Positions 36,076-38,365 of a stretch of DNA of 64,000 nucleotides are shown here, piece after piece. The position numbers and the translations under genes are program-made. Below the pieces are notes generated by a model, which ran no database searches, had not been told where the DNA came from, and worked only from the letters and a program-made list of their open reading frames with translations. The stretch is from an uncultured Actinomycetota bacterium (GTDB lineage Bacteria > Actinomycetota > Actinomycetes > Mycobacteriales > Pseudonocardiaceae). The stretch covers positions 10,094 through 74,093 of the forward strand of contig CAWGJH010000010.1 in NCBI GenBank assembly GCA_963822695.1, in the 5' to 3' direction. The first letter of the stretch is position 1; the number at the start of each line of letters is the position of its first letter.

Positions 36076-36555
36076 TCACTCCTCGGCGAAGGCGTGAGTG
36101 GCGCGACGGTAGCGCTGGGACAATGCGGCCAGTCGGTGCGGGGGCCACAGGTCAGCCTGTTCGCTCACACTCAGGTCGCCGCCGCGGCGCAGCAGCCAGA
36201 TATTGTCGAAGTCCGTCAGCACCGCGTCGCCGGGGATCCGGTACAGCAGGCTGGATACCAGCCGGATCATGTCATCCTCCTGATCGGAGATCTCGCCCTC
36301 CTTGTCGAGGCGGAACGCCACCAACACAGTTGGAGTGAACCCGAGGTCGGTGATCACCGAATTCCATGGCTGGGGTCTGGCCTCAACTACCCGGATCCAG
36401 GTGCCGAGCCCGGTCACCGTTCCCTCGTCGAGTACCTGCTCGGGGGTGACCGATGCGTCGAACGGCCCGATGGTCCGCGCGGCGTCGTGCAACGCGCGGG
36501 CGACCTGCGCCGCGGGCGACGACGTCGCCATGTCAAGAGTGTAGGAAATGGCCAT
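36076..36555 (-). CDS. putative immunity protein (SitI3-like) for the upstream toxin
   Basis: ATG at 36555 lies 23 nt after the toxin stop, with AGCGAGGA as SD. 159 aa, acidic. Motifs VAFRLDKEGEISDQEDDMI...DNIWLLRRGGDLSVSEQADLWPP are typical of polymorphic-toxin immunity proteins. Confidence 0.6.
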   Translation of the reverse strand: MAISYTLDMATSSPAAQVARALHDAARTIGPFDASVTPEQVLDEGTVTGLGTWIRVVEARPQPWNSVITDLGFTPTVLVAFRLDKEGEISDQEDDMIRLVSSLLYRIPGDAVLTDFDNIWLLRRGGDLSVSEQADLWPPHRLAALSQRYRRATHAFAEE

Positions 36556-36578
36556 CTGATAGTCCTCGCTTGGTGAGT

Positions 36579-38075
36579 CTACGGGTAGAGATGAAGTATG
36601 TTGCCCTGCTTGTCGATCGCGATGACCTCCTTGAGCCCCTTGATCGGCCAATCATGCAACTGGGCGCGCATCACGCCCACGTCGACGGGACTGTCAGCCA
36701 GGTTGAGCACGACACGGTCAGCTTGGCCGGTCCCGACCTTCTCCTCTTGGATACGGGTGGCGATGTTGCGGGCGTTGCCGGTCGTGGGCGCGATGTTGTC
36801 GAAGATCTTGCCGTTAATGCGGTAGTTGGGATTCTTGGGGCCGGGGACGGACGGGTTCTGCTCGACGTCGTACCCCGACCTGGCCAGCGTGTTGGCCGAC
36901 TCGTTCTCCCGCTGCAGCGAGCGCCGGGTGTCGGCGTTGCCGTGAATGCGGGTCGGACGGCCGCTGGGCTTGGCATTCGGGTCCGGGGGCCGCGTGGGCG
37001 GTGTTTCGGCGCTCAGCTCGTCGCTGATCTTGGTGGCGTCAACGCCTTCCACGTCGGGGGACGGGGTACCGCTCATCGCGGCGTGGATGGCGGGTTCGAC
37101 GCCTTTGGCGATCGCGACCGCCCCGCCGGTGATGACGAGCGCTGTCCCGGCAATCGTGGCGACTTCAATGATCGGTGCGGCTAGCGTGCCTTCGGCGTCG
37201 ACGCTGAAGAGCTCAAGTGTTTCGACCACGGCGGCGATGATCGCGTCTAGCCCACCATCGGTGAGGATGCTGCCGATGACCAGGACCAGCCCGACGACAC
37301 CGAGGCTGTCGACCACCGTCTTGATCTTGTCCTTGATCGCCTGCTGGGTGTCGTCGTTCCAGATGCGGAAGTCGACGAGGCTGTCCGCGACGTCGTCGAG
37401 CGCTTGGGGCAGCCCGGTGAGAATTGACTGTGGCCCCGCGGCTCGCTGCCAGAACTGTTCGAGCTCGTCGATGTCGGCGGAGCTGTTGTTGCCGAGCAGT
37501 CCTTGCAGTCTGGAGTGCAGGCCGGAGGCGAGGTCGCGAATCGCGCTTGCTGCTTTGCGGCACGCCTCGGCGGCTCTGTCCAGCTTTCCGGTGTCTGTGG
37601 TGGGAACGTATTTTTCTAGGAAGCCGGGCATCCACCAGGGCGCATCGCCGGTCAGGATCGCGAAATCGGTGTTGAACGGCCAGGGGTGAGGCGCGACGGA
37701 TGACCAGAGCGGTGGGTTGCTGGTTTGGCCGGGGACGCTGTCCTGGTCGGCGGTCCAGTGGTTGAGGGCGGATACGTCGATGCCCTTGCCGATCGCGCCG
37801 AGGAGGTCGAAGGCGGTATGGAACCCGTCGTTGATGATATTGTCCATGGCAGCGGCCCAGCCATCTTGGTACTGCTGCGCGCCGTCGCACGCACCGGCCG
37901 CACCGCTGGCCGCATTCAGTCCGTTGAGCAGATCCTCGCGGATACGTTCGAGATCATCCTGCGAGTCGACGAACTGCTGAGCCACCGCATGGAAGTCGGT
38001 TGGGTATAAGTTCACTGGCACCGCAGGGCCACCATCCGGACCGCGCACCACCATCGTCGGAGTGAGTTGAACCAT
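36579..38075 (-). CDS. CpnT-like/T7SS-type polymorphic toxin with nuclease-like C-terminal module
   Basis: ATG at 38075 overlaps the WXG100 stop (TGATG). The N-terminal ~250 aa are helical and WXG100-like (…TDTGKLDRAAEACRKAASAIRDL…ELEQFWQRAAG…). A central hydrophobic stretch and a Pro-rich linker follow. The C-terminal part reads RENESANTLARSGYDVEQNP...YRINGKIFDNIAP...QADRVVLNLADS. Confidence 0.65.
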   Translation of the reverse strand: MVQLTPTMVVRGPDGGPAVPVNLYPTDFHAVAQQFVDSQDDLERIREDLLNGLNAASGAAGACDGAQQYQDGWAAAMDNIINDGFHTAFDLLGAIGKGIDVSALNHWTADQDSVPGQTSNPPLWSSVAPHPWPFNTDFAILTGDAPWWMPGFLEKYVPTTDTGKLDRAAEACRKAASAIRDLASGLHSRLQGLLGNNSSADIDELEQFWQRAAGPQSILTGLPQALDDVADSLVDFRIWNDDTQQAIKDKIKTVVDSLGVVGLVLVIGSILTDGGLDAIIAAVVETLELFSVDAEGTLAAPIIEVATIAGTALVITGGAVAIAKGVEPAIHAAMSGTPSPDVEGVDATKISDELSAETPPTRPPDPNAKPSGRPTRIHGNADTRRSLQRENESANTLARSGYDVEQNPSVPGPKNPNYRINGKIFDNIAPTTGNARNIATRIQEEKVGTGQADRVVLNLADSPVDVGVMRAQLHDWPIKGLKEVIAIDKQGNILHLYP

Positions 38076-38365
38076 CACACCCGCCAGATCGCAACATTGG
38101 TCCGGACCGCCGACGAGTGATTGCGGTGCGCAGTCACGATAAGTTTGTGTAGTTCGGCCAAGTCGAGATTGATGTCTGCCGCTGTTTGCTGCCACAGCTC
38201 GTAGACTTGTCCGAACGCCTCAGCGGCTGCACCCGTCTACTGCTGGGTCATCGGCAGGATCTTGTCGTGCAACATCGACCGCAGGTCGTCGATTTCGCGC
38301 ACGACCCTGCGCATCTCGGACTCGGCGCCCTCCAACACGGCGAAGTCCACTACCAGCTTGTCCAC
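38075..38365 (-). pseudogene. WXG100 (Esx-like) gene with TAG replacing the Trp codon of the WXG motif
   Basis: From GTG 38365 to TGA 38075 there are 96 codons: VDKLVVDFAVLEGAESEMRRVVREIDDLRSMLHDKILPMTQQ*TGAAAEAFGQVYELWQQTAADINLDLAELHKLIVTAHRNHSSAVRTNVAIWRV. The stop is at 38237-38239. Confidence 0.75.

Follow-up and report, generated by a model that had tools for sequence, protein, structure and literature searches.

The locus described here raises the question whether a gene cassette that resembles the CpnT toxin locus of Mycobacterium tuberculosis still arms the cell that carries it. The cassette lies on the minus strand of a stretch of 64,000 nucleotides from an uncultured bacterium of the Pseudonocardiaceae, which was analyzed as a whole and is called the window in the following. 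It comprises a gene for a small partner protein of the WXG100 family, a polymorphic toxin gene and an immunity gene. An earlier reading made from the letters alone (the sequence-only reading) had proposed a cassette of this composition, and the family matches of all three parts reported below bear this out. Taken as a whole, we regard it as probable that this is a type VII secretion system (T7SS) cassette of the CpnT/PEST-like kind which was recently inactivated while its immunity gene was retained. The three genes and the two positions on which this interpretation turns are the following:

38075-38365, minus strand: WXG100-family partner gene, 96 codons plus TGA in relatives, interrupted in the window
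38237-38239, minus strand: in-frame TAG at codon 43 of the partner gene, TGG changed to TAG (changed base 38238) at the Trp of the WxG motif
36579-38075, minus strand: polymorphic toxin gene, 498 amino acids from ATG, open frame
36825-36827, minus strand: codon 417 of the toxin gene, AAC (Asn) in place of the GAC (Asp) of the family, corresponding to the catalytic D214
36076-36555, minus strand: SitI3-family immunity gene, 159 amino acids, intact

The A of the toxin ATG is shared with the TGA stop of the WXG100 gene (gtgTGATGgtt), and the open reading frame (ORF) of the immunity gene starts 23 nucleotides past the toxin stop. The coordinates, the spacing and the TGATG coupling of the three minus-strand ORFs are thus as the sequence-only reading had given them. 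This does not hold for the open WXG100 frame of 96 codons, which translates to ...PMTQQ-stop-TGAAAEAF... and contains an in-frame stop at codon 43 that had been missed. The third protein had been described as acidic and is so, with an isoelectric point of 4.7 and 23 Asp and Glu versus 14 Lys and Arg residues. Among related loci the order of the three genes is kept across unrelated genomic contexts. Scans for sigma-70 promoters and intrinsic terminators gave no more matches than expected from shuffled sequence and are uninformative in DNA of such a high GC (guanine plus cytosine) content.

If the Trp of codon 43 is put back, the 96-residue product matches Pfam WXG100 (1.1e-12) and TIGR03930 (2e-13). 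TGG is found at this position in the orthologous cassettes of an Amycolatopsis sp. (L001) and of a metagenome contig (L002), and also in two contigs that are used for comparison throughout. The first, L003, is ~95% identical to the window over 6 kb, shares the neighbours on the ftsZ side and carries a fully intact cassette whose WXG100 gene is 98% identical to that of the window. The second, L021 (a Logan SRR28022594 contig), shows 99.6% identity with the window across 4,948 bp; W43 of the partner and D417 of the toxin are both intact in it. In 12 related loci the toxin gene is immediately preceded by an intact WXG100 orthologue of 94-109 amino acids, which ends in ...IW(R/Q)(V/G/A), and it is one gene and never two in all 12 relatives with a readable upstream gene. 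Because codon 43 is TAG where the relatives have TGG, the WXG100 gene of the window is a 42-codon truncated gene, or the stop is a sequencing error; it is not the intact gene it had been taken for.

The second position lies in the C-terminal part of the toxin. The following four regions make up the toxin:

37302-38021, minus strand: WXG100_2 / CpnT-like domain with two helical hairpins, toxin residues ~19-258 (AlphaFold2, hhalign, PF25547)
37068-37319, minus strand: Gly/Ala-rich hydrophobic helices, toxin residues ~253-336 (Kyte-Doolittle, AlphaFold2)
36921-37067, minus strand: junction motif and Pro-rich variable linker, toxin residues ~337-385, at the boundary between the conserved and the polymorphic part
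36582-36920, minus strand: PD-(D/E)XK tRNase domain of the CdiA-CT(1026b) type, toxin residues 386-498 (Pfam CdiA_C, PDB 4G6V)

Residues 414-493 of the toxin match Pfam CdiA_C (PF18451) with 64.8 bits against a gathering threshold of 26.6 and over the full profile (1-81 of 81). A second match, that of the last 125 residues, is to chain A of PDB 4G6V, the CdiA-CT of Burkholderia pseudomallei 1026b, with an E-value of 6.4e-38 and ~60% identity over 115 residues. This domain is a Mg2+-dependent PD-(D/E)XK tRNase that cuts the acceptor stem of tRNA-Ala, and its active site consists of E187, D214, D223 and K242 (PMC9086364). With a single offset of 121 these residues of 4G6V are placed on E390, N417, D426 and K446 of the window toxin, so that the head lacks the complete catalytic set: E390, D426 and K446 are kept and D214 is replaced by Asn. 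An Asp is present at the D214 position in 59 out of 60 motif occurrences among homologues, and the Asn occurs in the window protein only. Position 417 is Asp also in the homologue P0072, which differs from the window toxin by 10 amino acids, and in P0071/L003, P0011 and L021. The assignment to the CdiA_C fold family thus applies, but the head of the window is probably not an active enzyme. This replacement at a catalytic residue had likewise been overlooked in the sequence-only reading.

The 159-residue protein, which had been suspected to be the immunity protein, matches NCBIfam immun_SitI3 (NF040657) with an E-value of 1.4e-35 and 122.8 bits against a cut-off of 31. The match covers residues 3-141 on profile positions 1-140 of 140, and orthologues of the protein carry a precomputed Pfam SitI3 match. 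Downstream of each CdiA_C-headed family member examined there is a SitI3 gene, and different small ORFs follow the other heads. A homologue of the 1026b tRNase is the C-terminal domain of SitA3 from Myxococcus xanthus: in E. coli it cleaves tRNA-Ala(UGC), and SitI3 neutralizes it (PMC5562445). From the conserved adjacency we infer that the 159-residue protein would neutralize the toxin head next to it. As judged by these matches, toxin head and immunity protein are members of known, experimentally characterized families and not a novel pair. The proposal of an uncharacterized toxin/immunity pair is unsupported for this reason, as SitA3-CTD and SitI3 have been characterized by experiment, while the notion that the head differs from that of CpnT was right (CdiA_C and not TNT).

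The comparison of the window with its relatives gives an indication of when the lesions arose. Between the window and L003 the ratio of nonsynonymous to synonymous substitution rates (dN/dS) amounts to 0.33 for the toxin gene as a whole and 0.18 for its head; the WXG100 gene has 0.15 and the immunity gene 0.11. Values of 0.11-0.33 indicate that the cassette was under purifying selection over the longer term. A different pattern is seen over the 4.9 kb compared with L021. There, 9 out of 13 substitutions fall within the 2.3-kb cassette and eight of these nine change a protein: W43 to stop, T297A, P301S, I308T and D417N affect the partner or the toxin, and the other three lie in the immunity gene. 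L021 itself has a 1-nucleotide deletion at the equivalent of window position 36910, which shifts the frame just upstream of the catalytic Glu. Two independent data sets thus contain near-identical cassettes with differing disabling lesions, and the immunity gene is intact in the window, in L003 and in L021. Since window and L021 carry different lesions and both keep an open SitI3 gene, we read this as a recent relaxation of selection on the toxin, or as selection against the weapon, with the immunity retained. The cassette of the window is most likely disarmed, as its helper is truncated at codon 43 and the first catalytic Asp is an Asn, and the toxin activity of this copy would accordingly be lost. 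Because the immunity gene is intact, the cell would keep its protection against intact toxins of close relatives.

In four further loci of Amycolatopsis and Jatrophihabitans (L010, L012, L013 and L014) the tblastn match to the toxin N-terminus spans more than one ORF. The toxin gene may be interrupted there as well, and if this is real, decay of the cassette may be common.

We now turn to the relatives and the N-terminal part of the toxin. Amycolatopsis and some metagenome contigs have full-length homologues of 489-498 amino acids that are 64-75% identical, and those of Gandjariella are partial (345-397 amino acids). According to the full-length search the family is mainly restricted to the Pseudonocardiaceae (Amycolatopsis, Gandjariella and metagenome-assembled genomes). 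The exact toxin of the window had no entry in the contig index, and among species-representative genomes none came closer than 75% identity; the nearest named homologues place the organism as Pseudonocardiaceae-like. The first ~350 residues are conserved within it (57-75% identity) and the C-termini vary, with CdiA_C, Colicin_D, Tox-REase-3 and others. A profile search with the N-terminal part reached 374 clusters (50% identity) at E<=1e-3, and for the counts in this more distant family 96 full-length members were scanned with domain profiles. Pfam WXG100_2 (PF25547) was matched by 77 out of 96 and Pfam WXG100 by 16 out of 96; the window toxin on its own scores below the Pfam threshold for WXG100_2. 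More than 15 different toxin heads are found on the same N-terminus among these distant members, including CdiA_C, Colicin_D, Tox-REase-2/3, CdiA_C_tRNase, Ntox24, RNase A, deaminases, barnase-like domains and RHS. TNT (PF14021) was found on none of the 96 members scanned.

CpnT of M. tuberculosis (P0223, 846 amino acids, 3,066 member sequences) carries PF25547 together with TNT. An hhalign comparison of the window family with an alignment of CpnT N-termini gave a probability of 96% and an E-value of 4.4e-9, with residues 19-178 aligned to residues 2-164 of CpnT. Together with PF25547 in the distant members this agrees with the resemblance to the CpnT N-terminus that had been noticed before, and by these profile comparisons the N-terminal domain of the toxin is homologous to the N-terminal domain of CpnT and to WXG100_2. 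Within the alignment the near-invariant N105-H106-x-x-A-D110 of the family is placed on N87-Y88-S-L-A-E92 (YxxxE) of CpnT. YxxxD/E is the export motif of T7SS substrates.

The sequence-only reading had also described two helical hairpin regions, a hydrophobic segment and a Pro-rich linker, and all of these are real according to the AlphaFold2 model and the Kyte-Doolittle profile. With the family alignment as input AlphaFold2 yields a confident, entirely helical model of the N-terminal part (predicted local distance difference test 85, predicted template modelling score 0.83), in which hairpins at 25-54/64-112 and 162-196/200-258 are followed by four shorter helices (261-336). Transmembrane-like peaks are located at 253-271 and 297-315, with 2.23 and 1.86 in Kyte-Doolittle windows of 19 residues. 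A comparable hydrophobic segment at a similar position was found in 81 out of the 96 distant members, and it is absent from CpnT. The junction motif (M/I)S(S/G)TP(N/S)P(N/D)(V/I)E...ATKISDEL belongs to the most conserved stretches of the toxin family, and members with different heads diverge right after ...KISDEL. A search of PDB sequences with the profile of the N-terminal family returned noise only. A PHROGs match of the Pro-rich linker and head region to ‘head maturation protease’ (E 9e-6) was disregarded as spurious.

Which of the known systems comes closest? With the EsxE/EsxF-CpnT-IFT system (Rv3903c locus) the window shares an upstream WXG100 gene, the WXG100_2 N-terminus, a C-terminal toxic head and a downstream immunity gene. 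CpnT differs in its head, a TNT NAD+ glycohydrolase with IFT as the immunity protein, where the window has a PD-(D/E)XK tRNase head with SitI3. The window family further has HxxxD at the position of the YxxxE of CpnT and a hydrophobic segment that CpnT lacks, the toxin is shorter (498 versus 846 amino acids), and the host belongs to the Pseudonocardiaceae and not to the species of CpnT, M. tuberculosis. The PEST cassettes of M. abscessus and M. chelonae prophages consist of a WXG100 effector, a polymorphic toxin and an immunity protein, of which heads and immunities recombine, and PEST3 toxins have a CpnT-like N-terminus of ~300 amino acids with two WXG-like hairpins (PMC10654092). Toxicity and protection by the immunity protein were shown in M. 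smegmatis for two other PEST cassettes whose heads are not of the CdiA_C type (PMC10654092). The cassette of the window combines a long N-terminus like that of PEST3 with just one WXG100 gene, which is the number in PEST1/2, and unlike PEST it resides on the chromosome, where the small ftsQ-ftsZ island that carries it is free of phage genes. The N-terminal domain had no tblastn match in 50,697 phage records, and a direct link to the PEST toxins of mycobacteriophages is for this reason not demonstrable. We conclude that the cassette falls into an established class, that of the T7SS-associated polymorphic toxin cassettes (CpnT-like, termed ‘PEST’ in mycobacterial prophages), and is not CpnT itself.

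Toxin head and immunity protein point to systems with other routes of delivery. CdiA-CT(II)/CdiI of B. pseudomallei 1026b has a head of the same domain family, which is delivered there by the two-partner system CdiB/CdiA and is joined here to a WXG100-type N-terminus; the CdiA-CT has D214 where the window copy has Asn. The immunity protein of the window had no match among PDB sequences and is unrelated to CdiI-1026b. SitA3/SitI3 of M. xanthus shows the same pairing of a 1026b-like tRNase with SitI3, but SitA3 is a lipoprotein transferred by outer-membrane exchange in a Gram-negative bacterium, whereas the head of the window is attached to a T7SS-type N-terminus in an actinobacterium. CdiA-related heads have been mentioned on candidate T7SS substrates. 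LXG toxins of the T7SSb of Bacillota are composed of a helical N-terminal secretion domain with one or more small helical partners, a polymorphic toxin and a downstream immunity gene. They follow the same logic as the cassette, but have an LXG instead of a WXG100_2 N-terminus and T7SSb instead of T7SSa.

The location of the cassette is informative with regard to its mobility. The window is chromosomal and contains smc, rimO, mraZ, ftsI, murE, murD, ftsW and ftsQ (33606-34424), and past the cassette it continues with ftsZ (41333-42628), a YfiH-like gene and divIVA. Between ftsQ and ftsZ lies one further feature:

35764-41100: strain-variable island of 5.3 kb in the ftsQ-ftsZ interval, carrying the cassette

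On either side of the island the relative L018 matches the window with 97.4-98.7% identity, but in place of window 35764-41100 it has genes for HTH_31, APH and Ldh_1_N proteins. In the same interval L019 has a gene for a PIN-domain protein and three to four HTH_31 genes. The cassette is taken to be part of a strain-variable island because L018 and L019 hold different genes between near-identical flanks. The GC content of the island is 0.645 versus ~0.69-0.70 in the flanks. A search for att-like or inverted repeats flanking it gave short matches at chance level only.

Some further observations concern this interval. The ftsQ-ftsZ junction of the dcw cluster, which is normally tight, is an insertion hotspot in the lineage of the window. 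Window 39190-39727 (plus strand) contains an HTH_3 fragment of 63 amino acids followed by a 112-residue ORF in another frame and may be a degraded regulator of the XRE type. Relatives carry genes for HTH_31 regulators of 410-418 amino acids in the interval, and a tblastn search of the window with the HTH_31 protein of L018 gave no match. L003 is without window 38975-39311 and 39610-40299. At 40308-41099 (plus strand) the island contains a stand-alone Ser/Thr-kinase-like gene of 263 amino acids, whose product is weakly similar to the PD-T4-6 models of PADLOC (best E 2.3e-11), which may be a generic similarity between kinases.

In summary, we picture the cassette as chromosomal, horizontally mobile and belonging with the type VII (ESX-type) polymorphic toxins of actinobacteria. 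In an intact copy the WXG100 protein would be translated together with the toxin by means of the TGATG coupling and would pair with its CpnT-like N-terminus to form a helical-bundle substrate of an ESX-4-like T7SS. The conserved hydrophobic helices might then aid association with, or crossing of, a membrane, although this is speculative. Inside a competitor the PD-(D/E)XK head could cleave tRNA, with the acceptor stem of tRNA-Ala as the likely target in view of the head's homology to CdiA-CT 1026b and SitA3-CTD, and in the producer and its kin the SitI3-family protein would bind and neutralize the head. We infer the pairing, the export and the cleavage of tRNA-Ala in competitors because WXG100, CpnT and PEST systems behave in this way (PMC10654092); T7SS export, tRNA target and the role of the hydrophobic segment are in this sense assigned by analogy. 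In the strain of the window the truncated partner should block export and N417 should cripple catalysis, while the immunity gene would stay functional.

Several observations weigh against the reading of a recently inactivated T7SS cassette. Each of the two lesions consists of one substituted base in one assembly. The HprK-related gene next to the cassette carries a frameshift in a C-run (C5 to C7, 34536), which may be a sign of imperfect sequence. An Asp-to-Asn replacement at a metal ligand usually, but not always, abolishes the activity of a PD-(D/E)XK enzyme, and no D214 mutagenesis data were found in the literature searched. T7SS core genes (ecc, mycP) were found neither in the 64-kb window nor in flanks of 10 kb around the cassettes of relatives. 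T7SS export is for this reason argued here from homology; an Amycolatopsis genome encodes eccB, eccC, eccD and mycP (PMC11004387). A Foldseek search of the N-terminal model against PDB and BFVD returned nothing significant. Its best E-value of 0.14 belongs to alpha-pore-forming toxins with a template modelling (TM) score of ~0.19, and EspB reached TM scores of 0.41-0.43 at E>1. Finally, the CpnT locus has two WXG100 genes (esxE and esxF) and the cassette has one, like all 12 relatives. The sequence-only reading had seen in it a mirror image of esxF/esxE-cpnT-ift, of which the order WXG100-toxin-immunity can be kept and the pair of esx genes cannot.

One alternative is that the cassette is fully active and that TAG43 and N417 are sequencing or assembly errors, or a heterogeneity of the culture. 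Each lesion is one base away from the near-identical contigs, the +2 C-run indel in the neighbouring HprK-related gene is a typical error site, and the long-term dN/dS of 0.11-0.33 speaks for purifying selection until recently. Yet errors that strike the signature Trp and the catalytic Asp of two partner genes within 2.3 kb would be a remarkable coincidence, and a shared sequence context that could make both G-to-A changes a base-calling error was looked for and none was seen. None of the large housekeeping ORFs examined in the window is interrupted, the six further amino-acid differences to L021 within the cassette resemble real divergence, and in L021, an independent data set, the same toxin head is disabled by another lesion. 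On balance we hold an active cassette obscured by errors to be unlikely.

The absence of T7SS genes nearby fits another alternative, namely that the toxin does not leave the cell through a T7SS but acts inside the producer as part of a membrane-associated toxin-antitoxin or abortive-infection module with its helices anchored in the own membrane. The transmembrane-like segments are conserved in the family, the hotspot holds the PIN-domain gene of L019, taken as part of a toxin-antitoxin pair, as well as, next to the cassette, the kinase gene with its weak similarity to PD-T4-6, and phage defence has been named as an open possibility for PEST (PMC10654092). However, no protein of the cassette is matched by a PADLOC model. 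The obligatory WXG100 partner and the homology to CpnT/WXG100_2 are hallmarks of T7SS substrates, and polymorphic heads, each with a downstream candidate immunity gene wherever readable, are typical of inter-bacterial toxins, which makes a defence module seem quite improbable to us. A true functional analogue of CpnT, that is, an outer-membrane nutrient channel which releases its head toward a eukaryotic host, can be set aside as hardly credible, since the homology, although it covers the first ~160 residues, is limited to the WXG100-like part, TNT and IFT are absent, the head belongs to an RNase family active on bacterial tRNA, a single esx-like gene takes the place of esxE/esxF, and the family resides in Pseudonocardiaceae, which to our knowledge have no mycolic-acid outer membrane.

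Some observations on the neighbourhood may be of use apart from the cassette. The gene that adjoins the immunity gene (window 34405-35556, minus strand) encodes an HprK-related, kinase B-like P-loop protein, of which homologues have 377-383 amino acids. By the frameshift at ~34536 (C5 to C7, +2) its last 48 residues are out of frame, and the ORF continues into ftsQ in antisense, which may be real decay or a homopolymer error. In L018 a murE-like ligase gene is split into parts of 420 and 105 amino acids by a 1-nucleotide indel in a C-run at the equivalent of window 29338, where the ORF of the window is intact. Homopolymer indels, whether real or errors, do therefore occur in these assemblies.

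The dcw cluster (window 26013-34424, plus strand; L018 11113-19346) has the order ftsI-murE-(mraY)-murD-ftsW-ftsQ and leaves no room for murF, murG and murC; the same order is found in the gene calls of L018 and L019. In actinobacteria murF, murG and murC are usually part of this cluster. Further downstream, two genes of a glycine/sarcosine/betaine reductase contain an in-frame TGA. In GrdB (55898-57352, plus strand) it is located at 57065-57067 (...AILTAT(TGA)GTGTRCG) and the frame goes on for 94 codons, and in GrdA (59115-59576, plus strand) it is located at 59238-59240 (...ECFV(TGA)TAAGAMD). As the TGA codons are at the expected selenocysteine sites, both are likely genuine selenoproteins.

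With regard to the gene family little is added by this locus, as the type of cassette, the toxin head and the immunity family are all known and the N-terminal domain is already in Pfam. In an annotation, the WXG100 gene of the window is best marked as a pseudogene, and its toxin as one that probably has no activity. The family itself comprises at least 374 clusters (50% identity) in non-mycobacterial actinobacteria, which share the hydrophobic segment that is absent from CpnT. L003 with an intact cassette, L021 with a frameshift in the head and the window with a nonsense codon in the helper and D417N, all of them with intact immunity, provide a natural example of toxin loss.

We further put forward a more speculative idea, which we consider possible but rather doubtful. 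WXG100_2 domain, hydrophobic hairpin, HxxxD and TPNPN(V/I)E junction might form a self-contained delivery module of an ESX-4-like T7SSa in monoderm Pseudonocardiaceae, exporting nuclease toxins through the membrane of a competitor. The window and its 99.6% identical twin would then represent a recurrent, independent disarming with the immunity kept, that is, the evolution of ‘cheaters’ within one population. We know of no experiment that has shown T7SSa-dependent killing of bacteria for this toxin family. If true, the idea of a delivery module would provide a tractable model of inter-bacterial killing mediated by T7SSa. The main interest of the locus lies in the apparent recurrent disarming in one population, and in a putative delivery module that is widespread in non-mycobacterial actinobacteria.

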